From a virus: 62,562 nt of DNA. The translations under genes and the position numbers were made by a program. The DNA is taken from UHGV virus genome UHGV-0106067. One strand, 5' to 3'. The notes below the pieces were generated by a model that ran no database searches, was not told where the DNA came from, and was given only the letters and a program-made list of their open reading frames with translations. Positions within the stretch are counted from its first letter, which is position 1. The number at the start of each line of letters is the position of its first letter. Below are positions 2,780-19,431 of this stretch, piece after piece.

Positions 2780-2809
2780 GCTCGCGCCTCCCGGCGCGGG
2801 CTTTTTTTG
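2780..2809 (+). terminator. intrinsic terminator (plus-strand orientation)
   Basis: hairpin cgcgcc-tccc-ggcgcg followed by gggcttttttt. Confidence 0.45.
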
Positions 2810-2812
2810 CAT

Positions 2813-2839
2813 GTAAAAAGGCCCCTGCGATGAGGGGCC
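2813..2839 (-). terminator. intrinsic terminator downstream of R-M operon
   Basis: hairpin ggcccct-gcgatg-aggggcc; on minus strand followed by ttttta. Confidence 0.5.
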
Positions 2840-3211
2840 TGAGAGTATTACCTGGTTTCAGTTAACTGCATAGTGCCGGGTGCCTCCCGGTGAGTTCAGC
2901 CCGGTGCCACCGAACCCGCGTCTTTCACATTGCCTGTGACATTAAAAATGCCAGCCCGCACCAGCCGCCCCGCCGCTGAGGGGGATTCACCATGCGTTGC
3001 GATTTTTAACAAATTCACCGCCAGCCAGACAATCATCAACTTGCTGAATTGTGAGGTATTTAAAAATTTCCCCGATTAACTGATACCCTGCTAACCACCT
3101 GTTGTTTTCTTTTTCAGCAACAAAAAAGCCCGCTCATCGGCGGATTCGGCTGCGTGGCAATGTAACCATTCTTATCATGATATGAGGATTTTTACGATTG
3201 TAAAATGTTTT

Positions 3212-6635: not shown

Positions 6636-6791
6636 TTACTTCTCAGATTCGTAGTCTACGAAGACAGCGACCTCCGTCTGGCCGGTTCGGATTCGTACCT
6701 CGCAGAAGTCTTTCCTCGTTACCAGTGCTATCACTACGACGGTAATACAGATGACGATCAGGGCGATTAACATCGCCTTTTGCTGCTTCAT
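6636..6791 (-). CDS. hok: Hok/Gef-family type I toxin (HokC/HokD-like)
   Basis: 51-aa ORF MKQQKAMLIALIVICITVVVIALVTRKDLCEVRIRTGQTEVAVFVDYESEK; SD aaggaga upstream; absent from ORF track (<60 aa). Confidence 0.75.
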   Translation of the reverse strand: MKQQKAMLIALIVICITVVVIALVTRKDFCEVRIRTGQTEVAVFVDYESEK

Positions 6792-6966
6792 AGCCTACTT
6801 CTCCTTGCCTTTCGGCACGTAAGAGGCTAACCTAAGTTTGTAAGTCATAGATTTGGCCTCAGATTAATGTTAAGCGTCCTGCAAGACGCGTAATGTTAAC
6901 TGGGGCTTTTCTCTGTCTGCCTTACGGCTGCATGCCCGAGGCAGACAGCCTCAAGCACCCGCAGCT

Positions 6967-11487: not shown

Positions 11488-11657
11488 GGTACTATTTCCA
11501 CTGTGATAGTTAGCACAATAATAATTTCGCCAGAAACTATCGCGCCCTATACAGTGATCTACCTAACCTATGGAGCTGCCTTCCTCTGGTAGTGCCCTTA
11601 CGGGCACGGATGTTACAGATCTGCCCCCTTACCCCCTTCTTAGTAAAATTTCAAGCC

Positions 11658-11681
11658 AAATAATTTCATATGAAATTATTT
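11658..11681. repeat. perfect 24-bp palindrome aaataatttcat|atgaaattattt in AT-rich intergenic DNA
   Basis: read directly; upstream of the helicase-primase module. Confidence 0.9.
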
Positions 11682-11709
11682 CACAAAAAAATAATCACCT
11701 TGATGAGGT

Positions 11710-11991
11710 CTATTCCTTCCGTATCGCTACTGGCGAAAGCATCCAGCCACGGCTGGCTCTCGCGTACTTCTGGACATACACCCGTAACCGGGTGTTGGCG
11801 CTCCGTCTTGCCCTGTTGCCCTTCCTGAACGATACAGGCTCCTTGTCCCACTCTTCCTGGTACACTCTCGCGTACTCTGCTGCAATTTTTACCCGGGTGG
11901 TCGGGTCTAGCTGTAACAATTGCTCCTGTATCCAGTCCCGATCAGCATCGCTGTACTGATCGGGCATAACCGTTTTGATTTGCCTGTTCAC
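11710..11991 (-). CDS. hypothetical early protein in cII position
   Basis: 93-aa ORF downstream of cro; not similar to lambda CII by eye. Confidence 0.4.
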   Translation of the reverse strand: MNRQIKTVMPDQYSDADRDWIQEQLLQLDPTTRVKIAAEYARVYQEEWDKEPVSFRKGNRARRSANTRLRVYVQKYARASRGWMLSPVAIRKE

Positions 11992-12021
11992 TCACACCTC
12001 CGATGGGCTGTGTGTCCAGGA

Positions 12022-12219
12022 TTAATCATCGCCTCTTACGAACGCAGGGAACGGTCGAACCTCTTCCGCCTCAACTCTGCCGTCATCAAAGGTTTTGACG
12101 TAAATTTCACGTCCGACAAGAAGCGCTTTACTGATCGCGCTCTGCGCCACACCAAAGTCCTTAGCGGCTTTCTTCTGACCGAACCTGTATACGTAATCAG
12201 CCAGGGTCTCTTTTTTCAT
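12022..12219 (-). CDS. cro: Cro repressor
   Basis: [33 protein letters not shown]...EEVRPFP resembles lambda Cro; divergent from cI. Confidence 0.75.
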
Positions 12220-12320
12220 CGCCATAACTGACTCCTTCAAAATGCCCATATCATTACGCACAGTTATTAAAATGTCAACACCGCAGATATTTCATTACAT
12301 ATAACCAAAGGTGATATGGT

Positions 12321-13034
12321 ATGAACATGAAAAAGAAACCGTTAACCCCTGAGCAACTGGAAGACGCCAAGCGTCTGAAAAGTATTTTTAACGCTAAAAA
12401 GAAAGAGTTAGGCCTGTCGCAGGAATCATTAGCCTATGAATTAGGTGTTACCCAAAGCGCTGTTAATCAGCTAATGGCTGGCATCAACGCCATAAATGCC
12501 AGCCACGCAGCACAGCTTGCTAAGATACTGAATGTAAAGGTCGGAGATTTCAGTCCCAGCCTGGCAAAATCTATTGCAGAAATGGCGCTCGCAATTGAAG
12601 AGCCATTAACTCGTGTCCCCGCTTACGAATATCCGTTACTCTCCTGCGTACAAGCTGGCGCATTCTCAATGGATGATATTTCGTACACCGCAAAAGATGC
12701 GATTAAATGGATCTCCACCACCACAAAAGCCAGTGACAGGTCGTTCTGGCTGGAGGTCAAGGGGCATTCAATGACCGCACCGCAGGGTGGTAAACCCAGC
12801 TTCCCTGAAGGTATGCTGATACTCGTTGACCCTGAACGGGAAATCGAGGATGGCGATTTTTGCGTGGCCCGAATGAACGGCGATGAATTTACCTTCAAAC
12901 GATTCATTCGTGAGAGCGGTAAAGCGTACCTGGAGCCGCTCAACCCACGATTCGACATGATTGAGTGTAACGAAAACTGCCAGTTTGTCGGAAAGGTCAT
13001 CAAATCGCAGTGGAATGATGATACTTTTGATTGA
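12321..13034 (+). CDS. cI: CI repressor (lambda CI-like, HTH + S24 LexA-like autopeptidase domain)
   Basis: near-colinear with lambda CI along its whole length ([20 protein letters not shown]... ; [13 protein letters not shown]... ; GMLILVDPE); recognition helix differs. Confidence 0.9.
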
Positions 13035-13130
13035 GCTCACAGAGCGATATTAATAACCTTGCCGGGAGATGCTTGGGAAGCGATTTTCTGGCATTATTAT
13101 CTGAGTTGCCCACAACCTATAGAGTCTTAC

Positions 13131-13292
13131 ATGAAAAAATCATTTGCTGTATTGTTCGTTTTGTTGTCACTGGTAGCTTCGACTCAATCATTCGCTGGTC
13201 GTTGCCAACACGACAATGATACCGCTGCTGACGGCTCTCGTTGTGGTGGTCGTTCTGCTGATTCTCGTCCTGGCGGTGGTGGTATTCGCTAA
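13131..13292 (+). CDS. candidate small secreted peptide (signal peptide + 31-aa Cys-containing tail)
   Basis: MKKSFAVLFVLLSLVASTQSFA-GRCQHDNDTAADGSRCGG...; weak SD; an overlapping alternative frame (13216..13455) encodes a single TM helix, so frame choice is uncertain. Confidence 0.25.
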   Translation: MKKSFAVLFVLLSLVASTQSFAGRCQHDNDTAADGSRCGGRSADSRPGGGGIR

Positions 13293-13296
13293 AAAC

Positions 13297-13322
13297 AAGG
13301 CCGCTTTCCCGGCCTTTATTTC
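13297..13322 (+). terminator. weak terminator/attenuator hairpin inside cI operon
   Basis: aaggccg-ctttcc-cggcctt followed by tatttc. Confidence 0.3.
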
Positions 13323-13471
13323 AATACGTTCAGACAGAATTTTTGGCCTGTTGTTAACTAGTAACCTGAAGAGACGTTTGGGTGATGTTTGGGTGATTTT
13401 AGTTGTGATTAACGAAAACTATGGTGCAACATCTTATAGTAAATTGTTAATATAACAAGGTATTGTATCAA

Positions 13472-14374
13472 ATGAGCCAAAATCTTGATTCAACACTAGA
13501 AACATACATCTCTTGGCAGTTAGAGCAATTTAAGGATAAATTTTTCCCAAACTGTGACGTCATTGCGTACTACGGTGGCATCTTTCCATGGTCAAAAGAA
13601 GTTTACCAGCCAAAACTTGAAGCTATTGGTGAGATGGCTAACAGTCGTACCAATAAATTTCTTGTTATTATACTCAATACAAACGGTGGTTCTGTTGAGT
13701 CTGTAGAAAAAATGGTAGAAATTACAAGGCATTTCTACCAAGAGGTATATTTTATCATTCCAGACATGGCTATGTCGGCAGGTACAATATGGTGCATGTC
13801 TGGAGATAAAATTTACATGGACTATGCTTCTTCATTAGGACCTATTGATCCTCAAGTGCAATCGTCGGACGGTAAATGGGTTCCCGCTTTGGGATACCTT
13901 GATAAAGTTGAAGAAATGATTAATAAATCCAGAGAAGGAACCATTACCCAAGCTGAACTGATGATGCTTAGTCAGTTAGATCTGGCGCACTTGCGGAGAT
14001 ATGAGCAAGCCAGAGAACTATCAATAGACTTGCTTAAGAAATGGCTTGTGGAGTATAAATTTAGAGAGTGGACAGTTCATCAGGGTAACACAAAACGAGG
14101 AAAGCTAGTTACCAAGAGGGAAAAGGAAGCGAGGGCTAAAATGATCGCTACCGCTCTTAGTGACAACGGAAAGTGGCATTCTCACGGAAGAACGATAGGA
14201 ATAAACACTCTTATCAATGACTTAAGGATAAAAGTAGAAGACTTTACATACGATAAAGATTTTAGCATGGCGTTAAAAAATATACATAACGTCATTAATG
14301 AATACATGTATAAAACAAATCGACAGGTTCTTGTTCTGTCTTCTTTCCCTTTTCCAGAACAAAGTGAGTCATAA
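13472..14374 (+). CDS. SDH-family (ClpP/S49-like) serine protease
   Basis: about 300 aa; MSQNLDSTLETYISWQLEQF...NTNGGSVES...MAMSAGTIWCMSGDKIYM pattern recalled for serine dehydrogenase proteinase family; ATG at 13472 preferred over TTG at 13463. Confidence 0.55.
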   Translation: MSQNLDSTLETYISWQLEQFKDKFFPNCDVIAYYGGIFPWSKEVYQPKLEAIGEMANSRTNKFLVIILNTNGGSVESVEKMVEITRHFYQEVYFIIPDMAMSAGTIWCMSGDKIYMDYASSLGPIDPQVQSSDGKWVPALGYLDKVEEMINKSREGTITQAELMMLSQLDLAHLRRYEQARELSIDLLKKWLVEYKFREWTVHQGNTKRGKLVTKREKEARAKMIATALSDNGKWHSHGRTIGINTLINDLRIKVEDFTYDKDFSMALKNIHNVINEYMYKTNRQVLVLSSFPFPEQSES

Positions 14375-14545
14375 ATGAACAAAGACAAATCCCTGACACA
14401 ACAAGTGGAAGAAATACTTAGCAAGCAAAAAGTTAGCGAGCAAGGAAAAATGATTCAATCATTAAAGAACAGGGGCTTGATCAACAAGCCTGTTTTTACT
14501 TTGGCTTATGGACCAGATATTACAACCTGCCAAATGCACCAATAA
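14375..14545 (+). CDS. small hypothetical protein, start abutting protease stop
   Basis: 56-aa ORF MNKDKSLTQQVEEILSKQKV...; ATG immediately follows TAA of protease gene; ends just before terminator. Confidence 0.25.
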   Translation: MNKDKSLTQQVEEILSKQKVSEQGKMIQSLKNRGLINKPVFTLAYGPDITTCQMHQ

Positions 14546-14550
14546 CAAAA

Positions 14551-14577
14551 CCCGGCCTTGGTGCCGGGTTTTGTTTG
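14551..14577. terminator. bidirectional intrinsic terminator between cI operon and hicAB
   Basis: aaaa-cccggc-cttggtg-ccggg-ttttgttt; A-tract and T-tract on either side. Confidence 0.6.
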
Positions 14578-14661
14578 CCTCCTGCTCGCCCCACCATTTA
14601 CCAGTGCGCCGTAAATTCCCCATTCTTCGTGGCGGTGAGGATGTCAAAGACGAAGGGAACA

Positions 14662-15006
14662 TTAAGCCCCTGTGTGATGGTTGACTTCTTTTTCCAGCGC
14701 CTTATTAACAAAGGCGTTCAGTGATAAATCTTCTTCCATCGCCATTTCTGCTACCCGACGATGCAGTTCTGGATCAAGCCTGACGTTAAACACACCTTTA
14801 AACGGGGTATCAGGCTCCTTTCCATCCTCCACACAAGACTGTAAATACAGCTCAACCGATGTCTTAAACTCCTGTTCCAGTTCAGCTAATGTAGAAGCCT
14901 CATAAGTTACCAGGTCTCGAATAAACGCCAGTTTTCCGTACAGGATATTATTTTCAAAATCTGGTTCTACTGTACCTAAATACCCTTTATATTTTAGATG
15001 CTTCAT
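14662..15006 (-). CDS. hicB: HicB-family antitoxin
   Basis: MKHLKYKGYLGTVEPDFENNILYGKLAFIRDLVTYEA... with C-terminal RHH-like segment SLNAFVNKALEKE. Confidence 0.7.
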   Translation of the reverse strand: MKHLKYKGYLGTVEPDFENNILYGKLAFIRDLVTYEASTLAELEQEFKTSVELYLQSCVEDGKEPDTPFKGVFNVRLDPELHRRVAEMAMEEDLSLNAFVNKALEKEVNHHTGA

Positions 15007-15257
15007 AATACCCCAGCCTCTTTCAGATTCTGTTTAATCGCTTTCAGCGTTCCACCTTTAATATAACTTTCTGGATGTGGGCGATGCATTAATATGGTGT
15101 GGTTGATTTCAGCATTGAAAAACCGCACTCTTGAGCCCTGCATTTCCTTTTTGACATCTCCCAGAGAGGAAAACAAAACGACCAGCTCATCCCATTCAAA
15201 CGTTTTTTTACTGTTTAAAAACTTTTCCAGTAGCTTATCTGCTTTCCCCATACCCAC
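15003..15257 (-). CDS. hicA: HicA-family toxin
   Basis: 84 aa, GSRVRFF...HRPHP...GTLKAIKQNLKEAGVL; 4-bp overlap with hicB. Confidence 0.6.
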   Translation of the reverse strand: MGMGKADKLLEKFLNSKKTFEWDELVVLFSSLGDVKKEMQGSRVRFFNAEINHTILMHRPHPESYIKGGTLKAIKQNLKEAGVL

Positions 15258-15502
15258 ATAATCTCATCTTCGCTACATTGCAACTAATTATAGTTACAGG
15301 CAGTGTTTTTGTCAAAAGCCACCAAGCCCGCTGGGTTCTCTTTGACTGTTCGCTGCTTTTCCTGGTGTTATCCGGGGGCTTTTCCCTCACGCCAAATCTC
15401 ACACAGAGTAACCGGCCCGCGCCGGCTTTTCTTTGACCGCACTCCGCTAACCGCCCCCTTGAAAAATAAATCACTTTAAAAATCAGTTAAGTAATATTTT
15501 TT

Positions 15503-15531
15503 TGACCCCAATAACCACCAACGGTATTTAC
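15503..15531 (+). promoter_or_regulatory. pL-like early-left promoter with operator half-sites
   Basis: TTGACC-17 nt-TATTTA resembling lambda pL; flanking CACCGC/CGGTG motifs similar to those between cI and cro. Confidence 0.5.
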
Positions 15532-15577
15532 ACAAAAATCACCGCAAGTTATATTTATTTCAAGCCAGAAACATCGC

Positions 15578-15592
15578 GCCCTTACACAGGGC
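15578..15592 (+). promoter_or_regulatory. boxB-like hairpin (nutL candidate)
   Basis: GCCCT-TACAC-AGGGC about 45 nt downstream of predicted pL start; lambda boxB is GCCCT-GAAAA-AGGGC. Confidence 0.35.
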
Positions 15593-16243
15593 TACATAAA
15601 TCAGTCGTACGGCGCGACTTAACCCGCCGCAAAATGCTCTTTAACAATCTGGAGCTTTACAGCGTCAATGACCTGTTTAGACCCCTACACGTAAACGTGC
15701 TGTATCATCGGGTGCGATCCGGTCGATGAGAGAGTATCCCCGCGCGAGAGCGAGAACGGCGTGAGAACGGGCAACACTGGCAGGAAGTTGGCGCTGACCA
15801 ATACAGGGAATGTTTTGGGGTGTGGTGAAGGGTTCATGGACGGGAATATGTCGCACGTAAAGCGGCGAGGCCCGAGGGACTATTGCTGAAGATAAGTAGG
15901 CCGAATCGGGTCGAAATGGGTCTCCCACCTGCCACATCGCCAAAGCATTTCCGAGAAAGGACGGTATTGACTGCGTGTGATGTCGGGGCTATATTTGGCG
16001 AACACCTCATAAAACGGGTGTCGGGATTCTCACCCCGCTGACAATCGAGGCGATACAGACGCGCCAGCGTCTTTTTTTGTATCGACATACACGCACATCT
16101 TATCAATGGTGGGCTGTATGGGGCCGACTTCGGTCGGGCTGGTTCCCTTGATTGCCAGTTGTGAGAACCCTGTACAGTCCACCGCCAGCGAGCTTCTCAC
16201 CTCCTGCGGTGGTTATTAATCACCAATCAAGGAGGCTGCCATT

Positions 16244-16891
16244 ATGGCTACTATCCCAGTCCTTTCTCAACCTGAAATCACCATTTCCAATGGTCGCGTT
16301 ATCACAACGTCTATTGCTATTGCTGAATTTTTTGACAAGCGGCACGACGACGTTTTAAAAAAAATCCGATTGATGGATTGTTCTACGGAATTTAACGCCC
16401 GCAATTTTTCGGACGTTACCTACACCGACGCCAAAGGCGAACAACGCCCAATGTACCAAATCACCAAAAACGGATTCGTTTTCCTGGTGATGGGGTTCAC
16501 TGGCAAAAAAGCCGCCGCTTTCAAAGAAGCCTACATTGCTGAATTCGATCGCATGGAAAAACAACTATGGGAACAGAAACAACTGGCCCTGTCTTCTCCT
16601 GCGATGAATATCAATTTCCCTTTGTCGTGGTTTTCAGAGCATCACCCCTATGCCACGATGAACTATGTTGATCGCAAGGTTATCAGCCTTGATGCTTCCG
16701 TGCTCTTCGATATGCCAAGCCCAACTATGCGCATCCTCAACGAGCTACACAGCAAGGGCTATAACGTCGACGCAGCTGTCGCTGAATTTAACGCCTTCAA
16801 ACATCTGACGGAAGAAATGCGCCGTAAATTGCTGGATATTTCCCGCACATCGGAAAAGTCTTCCCGCTTTGGTTTCAACGTTAATCTTTAA
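16244..16891 (+). CDS. Rha-family phage regulatory protein
   Basis: 215 aa; strong SD aaggagg; recalled Rha-like N-terminal pattern. Confidence 0.6.
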   Translation: MATIPVLSQPEITISNGRVITTSIAIAEFFDKRHDDVLKKIRLMDCSTEFNARNFSDVTYTDAKGEQRPMYQITKNGFVFLVMGFTGKKAAAFKEAYIAEFDRMEKQLWEQKQLALSSPAMNINFPLSWFSEHHPYATMNYVDRKVISLDASVLFDMPSPTMRILNELHSKGYNVDAAVAEFNAFKHLTEEMRRKLLDISRTSEKSSRFGFNVNL

Positions 16892-16961
16892 TTAACCCCA
16901 TCCCCGACCACATATCGGGGATTAAATTAAATATCTGGATTAATTAACCGGAGGATTTGTC

Positions 16962-17174
16962 ATGCTCAAACCTCACTACGGAACCGCATTAGTTTCTCGC
17001 GAGGACGTTAAACCCGGCACAGCAATTCTTTACAACGGGCGTTATTACATGGCGTCAGCGAACGTTAATAATGCACTTTACGCTCATTCACTGATTGAAA
17101 AAATTCGCATTATCTCAGATGCAATAGAAATTTACCTGAACAATAAAGGCCAACCGTTAATCTCACCAGCCTGA
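16962..17174 (+). CDS. hypothetical protein
   Basis: 70-aa ORF with SD ccggagga. Confidence 0.4.
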   Translation: MLKPHYGTALVSREDVKPGTAILYNGRYYMASANVNNALYAHSLIEKIRIISDAIEIYLNNKGQPLISPA

Positions 17175-17185
17175 AAGGAAATATC

Positions 17186-17467
17186 ATGCTCAATCAAAAA
17201 ATAAATATCAATGTAAAAAGCGTCGTAACTCCAGCAGGAACGATAATGGGAGAAGTTTTTATGGATGATAAAATCATCGCCTATTTTGTCGTCCTGTCTG
17301 ATGAGGCTATTTCTGTTATTGATACGGAAGGCAATGTTATGTTTATCGCAGAACATCCAGAAGACATCGCATTACAGGCCGCTGCATATTTCTTCGCTAA
17401 GGAGCAGGAGGAAGAATGTAACTGCCCTGTATGTCAGCTTTCCCGACAAATTAATTTAATGCATTAA
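17186..17467 (+). CDS. hypothetical protein
   Basis: 93-aa ORF, C-terminal CNCPVC. Confidence 0.4.
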   Translation: MLNQKININVKSVVTPAGTIMGEVFMDDKIIAYFVVLSDEAISVIDTEGNVMFIAEHPEDIALQAAAYFFAKEQEEECNCPVCQLSRQINLMH

Positions 17468-17487
17468 CCGGAATCAGGAGTTCCGCC

Positions 17488-17769
17488 ATGAACGCATACC
17501 TCACCTGCGACCGCATAGAGGAGCGTCGCTGGATTAATCAGCAAATTCAGGATGAAAAGGATAAATGGATTGATGATCGGGCGCAGGAGCTTATCAGCAT
17601 GTTCCCCGATAAACCATTGCTTATGAGCAGCCTTTTTTTACCCAAAGAAGCCCAACTGGCACTCACTGGCGAAAAAGCTGAAGAGGCGTACAACGATTAT
17701 ATCTCAGCGATCGCCTATGCTCGGGCGGAAGAAGAATGGGAGAGAAAATTCTCCCCCTGTCCTTTCTGA
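17488..17769 (+). CDS. hypothetical protein
   Basis: 93-aa ORF in early-left operon. Confidence 0.4.
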   Translation: MNAYLTCDRIEERRWINQQIQDEKDKWIDDRAQELISMFPDKPLLMSSLFLPKEAQLALTGEKAEEAYNDYISAIAYARAEEEWERKFSPCPF

Positions 17770-17785
17770 TTTTCAGGACCAAAAA

Positions 17786-18736
17786 ATGTTCGATATCGTT
17801 GAATTTGTTAAGCAGCAGGAGCGCTTTTTCTGCGAGGCATTAACTGAACCGACGCTGACATGGGCGAAGGAAAGTCAGTTTGCAATTCAGCAATTCCAGA
17901 AAAATGCCTTTCTGGCTGACACAGCACGGGCAAATCTGCCCAGCGCACAGAACGCTATCATCAATGTTGCCGCCATCGGCATAACCCTGAACCCGGCCAG
18001 CAAGCTGGCGTATCTGGTCCCACGAAAAAAGGCTGTATGCCTGGATATCAGTTATATGGGGCTTCTGCATCTGGCACAGGTCACAGGAGCCATTCAGTGG
18101 GGGCAATGCAAACTTGTTTACGAGAAGGACATTTACGAGTCCAACGGTATTGACTGCGCCCCCACGCACAAATACAACCCATTCGTAGACAGGGGCGCAC
18201 GCATTGGCGGTTATTGTGTCGTAAAAACATCCGAAGGCGACTATCTGACCGAAGAGATGAGCAACAGGGAAATCGAGGTCATCAGGGCGTGCAGCAAAGC
18301 CGGAAATAACGGAGGAAGTAGCCCGTGGGATAGTTTCCCCGATGAAATGGCCCGCAAAGCCATTGTTAAACGCGCCAGCAAATACTGGCCCCGTCGCGAT
18401 CGCCTGGATACAGCTATCGACTACCTGAACACTCAGGCCGGTGAAGGTATTATCCTGAATGCTGATCACATCCCTGAGCGCGACGTCACTCCCGCATCAG
18501 ATGAGATTATCAATGAGATCACTCAGGCAATCACCGAAATCAACAAGAAATGGGATGACCTTCTCCCCGTATGTTCCAAAACATTCCGTCGCACGATTGC
18601 ATCACATGAAGATCTCACGCAGGAAGAAGCCGTCAAAACGCTGGATTTTGTCAAAAAGAAAGCTGCCAGAAACAAGGCCACGGCGGAAGCGAAAGTTCAC
18701 GCCACCACGGAAAATAACAGCGAGGCCGTGTCATGA
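17786..18736 (+). CDS. recT: RecT-family single-strand annealing recombinase
   Basis: start placed at internal [11 protein letters not shown] with SD; paired with downstream exonuclease. Confidence 0.65.
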
Positions 18737-19431
18737 CACCAGAAATTATTCTCCAGCGAACTGGCGTGGATATTACCAGCCTCGACCAGGGCGATGATGG
18801 ATGGCACAAGCTGAGACTCGGTGTTATCACTGCTTCAGAAGTTCACAACGTCATAGCCAAACCACGTTCAGGCAGCAAATGGCCTGATACAAAAATGTCA
18901 TACTTCCACACCCTGCTGGCTGAAGTTTGTACTGGCGTGGCACCGGAAGTTAACGCTAAGTCGCTCGCATGGGGAAAGCAATACGAAGATGATGCCCGTG
19001 CCCTCTTCGAATTTATCGCGGATGTTACCGTCTCGGAAACGCCAATAATTTTTCGTGACGAAAGCATGCGCACCGCCTGCTCTCCCGACGGTTTATGCAG
19101 CGACGGTAACGGTCTTGAGCTTAAATGCCCCTTCACTTCCCGCGACTTCATGAAGTTCCGGCTTGGCGGCTTTGACGCTATCAAGCCTGCTTACATGGCC
19201 CAGGTGCAATTCAGCATGTGGGTTACAGACAAGGACGCCTGGTACTTCGCCAACTACGACCCACGTATGAAGCGTGAAGGCCTGCATTATGTCGTGGTCG
19301 AGCGGGATGAAAAGTACATGGCGAGTTTTGATGAGATGGTGCCGGAGTTCATCGACAAAATGGACGAAGCACTGGCGGAAATTGGTTTTGTATTTGGAGA
19401 ACAATGGGGGGGGTTAATAACTAATGGATGA
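18733..19431 (+). CDS. lambda-Exo/YqaJ-type exonuclease
   Basis: 232 aa; translationally coupled to recT. Confidence 0.65.

Follow-up and report, generated by a model that had tools for sequence, protein, structure and literature searches.

The stretch of viral DNA analysed here (UHGV virus genome UHGV-0106067, 62,562 nucleotides, in the following referred to as the window) carries two short, overlapping open reading frames on the minus strand between positions 14662 and 15257, to the right of its cI gene. Do these frames encode a genuine toxin-antitoxin pair and, if so, how would the pair be expressed, to what lineage does it belong and what would it do for its carrier? The features needed to answer these questions are listed below.

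12321-13034, plus strand: cI, with HTH and S24 peptidase
13049-15411: variable cargo slot of 2.4 kb, from the cI stop codon to the conserved terminator
13463-14374, plus strand: gene of an SDH-family Clp-fold serine protease of 303 aa
14544-14575, both strands: two-way intrinsic-terminator-like hairpin with a 13-bp stem, a CCCGGC/GCCGGG core and A-/U-tract flanks
14646-15317, minus strand: mobile hicAB cassette, from the promoter through 16 nt beyond the hicB stop, DNA shared with IncX4 plasmids
15006..14662, minus strand: hicB, antitoxin gene, 114 aa
15251..15003, minus strand: hicA, toxin gene, starting with the ATG at 15251 and encoding 82 aa
15279..15298: likely HicB operator, an imperfect palindrome TGTAACTA-TAAT-TAGTTGCA lying over the -10 box
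15315..15287, minus strand: hicAB promoter, TTGACA, 17-nt spacer and TATAAT, matching 12/12 consensus positions
15346-15417, plus strand: 72-bp 3′ remnant of the SocA/Panacea partner gene, adjoining the hicAB promoter
15412-15425, plus strand: terminator-like hairpin, CCGGCCCGCGCCGG followed by CTTTTCTTTG, forming the right edge of the slot at the position of lambda Timm
15527-15555, plus strand: candidate pL, TTTACA, 17-nt spacer and TATATT, 10/12 in the promoter scan

Both products are recognised by profile searches. HicA matches the Pfam family HicA_toxin (PF07927) over profile positions 1-58 of 58 with 39.1 bits (gathering cut-off 27 bits, E 8e-10) and aligns over its full length with PHROG 8887 'toxin' (E 1e-33). 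HicB reaches 71 bits against Pfam HicB PF05534 (gathering cut-off 21 bits, E 7.5e-20) and aligns over its full length with PHROG 9151 'HicB-like antitoxin' (E 4e-50). Residues 72-112 of HicB additionally match Arc-like ribbon-helix-helix repressor PHROGs, and its C-terminal region weakly matches the CopG-family structure 9kkd (E 0.05). The initial annotation, which had read the frames as a HicA-like toxin and a HicB-like antitoxin, is thus borne out by Pfam and PHROG, and likewise by the predicted folds and by the 95-96% identity to a tested IncX4 plasmid pair, both described below.

As no solved structure is close in sequence, structure prediction from homologue alignments and fold comparison were employed. 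Single-sequence searches of solved structures gave no match for HicA and marginal matches only for HicB, and in a profile search of the PDB HicA entries appeared just at E about 0.4-0.5, ranked under spurious matches. The AlphaFold model of HicA (pLDDT 90) comprises a helix (residues 20-29), three strands (32-36, 41-46 and 51-56) and a second helix (66-79), namely the helix, three strands, helix order of a small double-stranded-RNA-binding-like fold, preceded by an additional N-terminal helix (3-13). Its best counterparts in the PDB are the HicA chain of the B. pseudomallei HicAB complex (6g26_E, probability 1.00, TM 0.71 on the target) and the Thermus entry 1whz as well as 4c26. The HicB model (pLDDT 90.6) contains strands within residues 4-37 and a helix (40-60), and after an FNVRL segment two further helices (79-91 and 96-112) follow. 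HicB is thereby predicted to consist of an N-terminal partial RNase-H-like domain and a C-terminal ribbon-helix-helix domain. The best folds are HicB of 6g26, TTHA0281 (2dsy) and Y. pestis HicB3 (4p78_A), and the rmsd to the N-domain of B. pseudomallei HicB (6g1c_B) is 1.7.

The toxin gene lies upstream and the two ORFs overlap by 4 bp (ATGA); homologues in Photorhabdus, Salmonella and Acinetobacter show this hicA-hicB order and this 4-bp overlap, too. The upstream frame is open from an in-frame GTG (15257..15003). This GTG is not conserved among homologues, and in the IncX4 plasmid copy it is taken out by a 7-nt deletion. The ATG at 15251 is the start common to all close homologues and is also the choice of RefSeq. 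In an Acinetobacter contig (L016, 1501-1572) the annotated 'HicA' of 106 aa starts within the operator palindrome; its additional 24 residues are probably an annotation artefact, with the conserved MGK as the true start. The ribosome-binding site is good for hicB (AAGAGG) and poor for hicA.

Upstream of hicA lies the sole 12/12 sigma-70 match found by the promoter scan within 12000-16400. It is located 36 nt upstream of the hicA ATG, with a predicted transcript start near 15280. The imperfect palindrome over its -10 box has the form GTAACTA-N4-TAGTTRC and is perfect in E. coli KY204. Homologues from Photorhabdus and Salmonella, whose HicA proteins are 70-74% identical, carry its arms as well (GTRACTA/TAGTTAC), at 35-47 nt before hicA, and the Acinetobacter homologue has one or more related palindromes upstream of hicA. 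Among the homologues the centre and the flanks of the palindrome vary while the arms stay conserved, and in the IncX4 copy both promoter hexamers and the palindrome are kept exactly, with diverged spacer and leader. The palindrome over the -10 box is the likely HicB operator, since it is found again in front of homologues in other genera; positions 15279-15298 fit the operator of a dimeric ribbon-helix-helix repressor, to which HicB would bind.

At the other end of the operon, the hairpin 14544-14575 begins at the stop codon of the last ORF of the cI operon and lies 87 nt beyond the hicB stop. Folding energies are -23.2 kcal/mol for the plus strand (z -3.9) and -26.1 kcal/mol for the minus strand (z -2.7). 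It is the sole strong terminator-like element between the cI operon and hicAB, and it was missed by the consensus terminator scan because its U-tract falls within the stem. Inside the hicAB operon the only terminator-like site seen is a weak one, located at the hicB stop. The cI operon is on the plus strand and hicAB on the minus strand, so the two are convergent as originally proposed, and the bidirectional terminator which they had been suggested to share is consistent with this hairpin, a plausible two-way terminator for both. Past cI, the cI operon was observed to continue over 13059-14545 on the plus strand with a small membrane-anchored peptide, the protease and a 56-aa ORF. The protease is encoded by one intact gene here, whereas the annotation of UCPROB-002 has two separate genes of 534 and 327 bp instead.

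The surroundings show what kind of element carries the pair. Phage PA2 (Oslovirus) shares the flanks of the slot (11506-13048 and 15412-19000) at about 95% identity, cro (Pfam Cro) is directed leftward and cI rightward, and to the right of hicAB the genes Rha, kil, gam, recT and exo follow on the plus strand after isrK-/C4-like RNAs. Judged by its sequence, the carrier is an Oslovirus-like (Stx-phage-like) lambdoid prophage. For stx itself, a search with motif strings, which are unreliable as queries, gave no match. An isrK-like (61 bits) and a C4 antisense-like RNA (77 bits) stand in tandem at 16002-16189, upstream of the Rha/antirepressor-like gene at 16244, and a promoter-like site (15967-15995) precedes the isrK-like RNA; this layout resembles the P1 immI / Gifsy isrK arrangement. 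An STnc100 sRNA match (149 bits) is located at 2809-3025.

Between these flanks the content of the slot changes from phage to phage. In the window its cargo comprises the membrane peptide, the SDH protease, the 56-aa ORF and hicAB. In PA2 these 2.4 kb are replaced by a methyltransferase and a BsuBI-like endonuclease, a restriction-modification (R-M) system that also fills the slot of P13374. Lyz12581Vzw has this R-M system together with a SocA/Panacea pair, and PhiR12_3 an R-M remnant; in E. coli KY204 the protease is missing, and the slot contains hicAB along with the membrane peptide and a Panacea pair. In several other phages the slot is likewise about 2.5 kb long, a figure which concerns length only and is computed from match coordinates. 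Position 15412 is the first base of the sequence common to all slot variants. A trace of other cargo persists beside the hicAB promoter, where 15346-15417 matches, at 98.6% identity, the terminal part of the gene that follows socA in Lyz12581Vzw and in 22 further phages; at the position of this remnant the SocA/Panacea pair is intact in Lyz12581Vzw and E. coli KY204 (L004 4373-4753; L007 5372-6222). Five slot fillings with the same flanks and differing accessory or defence cargo have thus been seen; they show that R-M and toxin-antitoxin cargo is truly exchanged at this slot, within which hicAB is one independent unit. The slot adjoining cI in Stx-phage-like prophages, in other words, swaps restriction-modification and toxin-antitoxin modules.

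Two statements of the initial annotation about this neighbourhood have to be narrowed. It had counted three stacked accessory units in the immunity region: the peptide/protease module and hicAB are indeed found there, but the hok/sok unit lies 5.5 kb away and outside it, as a hok-type gene of a 51-aa peptide with a sok RNA match (118 bits) at 6636-6960, across cro. The description as a defence hotspot holds insofar as an accessory swap slot with five fillings exists. PADLOC-DB 2.0, however, gave at E up to 0.01 no match for HicA, HicB or the neighbouring genes including the peptide, the protease and the 56-aa ORF, and it is from the neighbourhood only that defence is suggested.

The pair had further been placed between the cI operon and pL. 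It does lie past the end of the cI operon and before the early-left genes, but pL itself is only a candidate, situated about 100 nt beyond the Timm-like hairpin. A 15-bp palindrome, ATCACCGCAAGTTAT (15538-15552), overlaps the -10 box of this candidate, and a second one, ATAACCAAAGGTGAT (12301-12315), lies beside the start of cI. No other site in the window matches ATMACC-N3-RGTKAT exactly, but this pattern was derived post hoc from the two, which are candidate cI/Cro operators. A local alignment of the pL region with the cI-cro operator region scored 31, not significantly above the 24.8 +/- 3.4 of shuffled sequences, and a search for pL by shared 13-mers and 5-bp palindromes found nothing.

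In order to place the pair among known lineages, the cassette was compared at the DNA level. It is about 91% identical to roughly 440 places in E. coli plasmids and to 798 PLSDB records, mostly conjugative; the plasmids with a matching hicAB number in the hundreds, are conjugative and measure about 30-35 kb. The IncX4 replicon was confirmed for the one plasmid checked, the mcr-1-type pECGD-8-33. Identity to the IncX4 pair amounts to 78/82 residues for HicA and 110/115 for HicB. The G+C content is 40.6% for the cassette and 38.4% for the protease module, as compared with 49.5% for the whole window. Lin et al. (2025) named a hicA(O)B lineage with overlapping ORFs and no internal terminator (PMC11878559), whose IncX4 representatives (pJIE143, p14EC007a, pECGD-8-33) share with the prophage copy the 4-bp overlap, the promoter hexamers and the palindrome. 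The prophage copy differs from them in its carrier, a prophage instead of a plasmid, in its 5′ leader including the 7-nt indel, in a HicB that is one residue shorter at the C terminus, and in a Y32D exchange in HicA. With overlapping frames, no strong internal terminator and about 91% DNA identity to the IncX4 copies, the pair is assigned on sequence grounds to hicA(O)B, the lineage characteristic of IncX4 plasmids. One hicAB cassette is accordingly common to Stx-phage-like prophages and to the IncX4 plasmids by which resistance to colistin and carbapenems is spread.

The plasmid pair has been characterised experimentally. In E. coli K-12, HicA of IncX4 p14EC007a proved toxic, and its cognate HicB neutralised it completely (PMC11878559). 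The IncX4 pair gives the plasmid a slight competitive advantage only (PMC11878559), namely 3:1 after 80 generations (PMC11594946; PMC11878559), and for the pJIE143 hicAB a role in plasmid maintenance had been discarded earlier (PMC11594946). On the chromosomal side, nine complete E. coli chromosomes share the prophage arrangement at an identity of at least 98.6%, with both frames intact in all nine and the genes labelled HicA and HicB by RefSeq. Among deposited phages none carries the cassette at the DNA level, and the phage copies recovered by protein search are all distant, with at most 50% identity.

The putative active site of HicA departs from that of the toxins studied so far. In those the catalytic histidine belongs to a GSH/GSNH motif (His24 in B. 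pseudomallei HicA, His23 in E. coli HicA; PMC11594946), in the turn before strand 2, whereas the segment G39-F45 of the present HicA contains no histidine at all and has the motif G39-S40-R41-V42 instead (residues 39-41, positions 15129-15137). A profile-profile alignment with E. coli K-12 HicA places no histidine here either, at a probability of 6-13%, which is too weak to fix the register. Among 130 representatives of the long-form HicA subfamily, which comprises about 1500 cluster representatives at E ≤ 0.001, position 41 is Arg in 114, and His is absent from the residues counted there. The subfamily keeps G39-S40-R41 together with H56-[R/K]-P-H59-P (residues 56-59, positions 15075-15086), in which H56 and H59 are near-invariant. 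Membership in the canonical short HicA subgroup (E. coli K-12, B. pseudomallei, Y. pestis HicA3) was considered and rejected for lack of the GSH histidine; by its motifs HicA groups with the long-form lineage. Since the IncX4 orthologue with the same G-S-R motif is toxic (PMC11878559), the active site of the long-form lineage may differ from that of the toxins studied, and, with no histidine at the canonical GSH position, RNase chemistry is an assumption for this HicA subfamily.

The second peculiarity concerns residue 32 (codon 15156-15158), which is Asp here and Tyr or Phe in 104 of the 130 subfamily representatives. The IncX4 plasmids and two sister prophages have Tyr32, and Asp32 is otherwise present only in E. 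coli UCPROB-002. In the model D32 sits at the start of the first β-strand. As it replaces a conserved Tyr/Phe, the toxin may be attenuated by Y32D. Both points lend themselves to cheap follow-up, namely a toxic long-form HicA without the supposed catalytic histidine and the unusual Y32D in the prophage copy.

Taken together, the locus is with good confidence a complete, self-contained type II HicAB cassette, inserted as an independent cargo pair downstream of cI. It would, with the same high confidence, act as an autorepressed module with its own promoter in the lysogen, in which HicB both blocks HicA and represses the operon. Transcription in the lysogen would start at this promoter and would not depend on cI. 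By analogy to the family and to the plasmid pair, HicB dimers would bind the palindrome and repress the operon, and HicB would bind and neutralise HicA, as expected also from the 95-96% identity to the plasmid proteins. HicA, a small toxin with a predicted RNA-binding fold, would arrest growth when free of HicB, presumably by cutting RNA. That the frames are instead chance ORFs or a dead remnant without function is next to impossible: apart from the general caution that an ORF is not necessarily a gene, nothing speaks for this reading, while HMM E-values from 1e-10 to 1e-50, the conservation of the gene pair across genera, a perfect promoter with a conserved operator and intact frames in all nine RefSeq-annotated chromosomal copies speak against it. 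On the strength of HMM, fold and synteny evidence it was ruled out.

What the cassette does for its carrier is less certain, and abortive-infection or exclusion cargo benefiting the lysogen is ranked before a selfish addiction or passenger module. We tentatively place foremost an anti-phage role, in which an incoming phage would upset the HicA/HicB balance and free HicA would shut down the cell. The slot elsewhere holds R-M systems and Panacea/SocA pairs, an independent and constitutive promoter, as predicted here, suits expression in a lysogen, HicA genes are enriched in defence islands (PMC10865869), and mEp234 and HK106 carry hicAB at the rexAB position. Against these points stand the missing PADLOC match mentioned above, the fact that a phage block has so far been shown for no HicAB system and the finding that the HicAB-like pair of Adephagia protected against none of the phages tested (PMC11594946). 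HicB of IncI2, moreover, is stable for 12 h in lysate (PMC11878559), so that the usual trigger by a labile antitoxin may not apply. Rather less probable is a selfish stabilisation, by which HicA would kill or arrest cells that lose the prophage or the slot. Such behaviour is classical for type II toxin-antitoxin systems, a plasmid was stabilised by the HicAB of a Paracoccus prophage (PMC11594946), and a minimal promoter-toxin-antitoxin unit moves between plasmids and prophages; the near-identical IncX4 pair, however, is dispensable for plasmid maintenance, with its 3:1 advantage only (PMC11594946; PMC11878559), and segregational loss of an integrated prophage is rare. The Y32D exchange opens a further, improbable reading as an anti-addiction element, according to which HicA is weakened and the retained HicB neutralises HicA of incoming or lost IncX4 plasmids. 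D32 in place of an aromatic residue conserved in 104 of 130 representatives, the co-occurrence of Y32D in UCPROB-002 with a neighbouring protease annotated as two genes, and a HicB 96% identical to that of IncX4 are in line with it, but both frames, the promoter and the operator are intact and the sister prophages keep Y32. Slightly more doubtful still is that the prophage copy acts mainly via its antitoxin and renders lysogens immune to the addiction or competition effect of IncX4 plasmids. If true, it would represent cross-talk between prophage and plasmid and could influence the carriage of mcr-1-type plasmids.

Among the known systems, the pair corresponds to class 4 hicAB as defined by Gerdes (2024), with the toxin gene first and a HicB carrying a ribbon-helix-helix tail (PMC10865869); to judge from gene order and the modelled HicB, it is a classical member of this class. 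The closest precedents by location are the lambdoid phages mEp234, HK106 and mEp506 (GenBank EF120460, EF120461), in which a long-form HicA and a HicB are likewise encoded between cI and pL. Their proteins share just 35% (HicA) and 42% (HicB) identity with those described here, and their hicAB occupies the position of lambda rexAB, co-oriented with cI and ending at Timm within the cI transcription unit, whereas the present hicAB is convergent with cI and has a promoter of its own. Since GenBank annotates hicA and hicB between cI and Timm/pL in mEp234 and HK106, hicAB in a lambdoid immunity region is not new. Considering this precedent together with the RefSeq annotation, the finding is correct but ordinary, the kind of element being already annotated and well understood, and the result matters little beyond annotation.

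The likeness to the founding 'hif-contiguous' hicAB locus of Haemophilus influenzae, which lies in a chromosomal island, was assessed on HicB: both HicB proteins belong to PF05534, and HicB of the prophage is 62% identical to H. influenzae HicB Q9LA69 over 95% of its length. With the structurally solved pairs of B. pseudomallei (6G26), Y. pestis HicA3B3 (4P78) and E. coli K-12 HicAB, both folds and the toxin-first order are shared, and in solved HicAB pairs HicB with a DNA-binding tail represses via a palindromic operator (PMC10865869). Sequence similarity to them is nevertheless marginal (best PDB profile E about 0.4), and HicA of the prophage differs by its additional N-terminal helix and by Arg41 in place of the catalytic histidine. 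Lambda rexAB, finally, is accessory cargo expressed in the lysogen and maps to the same place between cI and pL, but its proteins are unrelated and it is transcribed together with cI.
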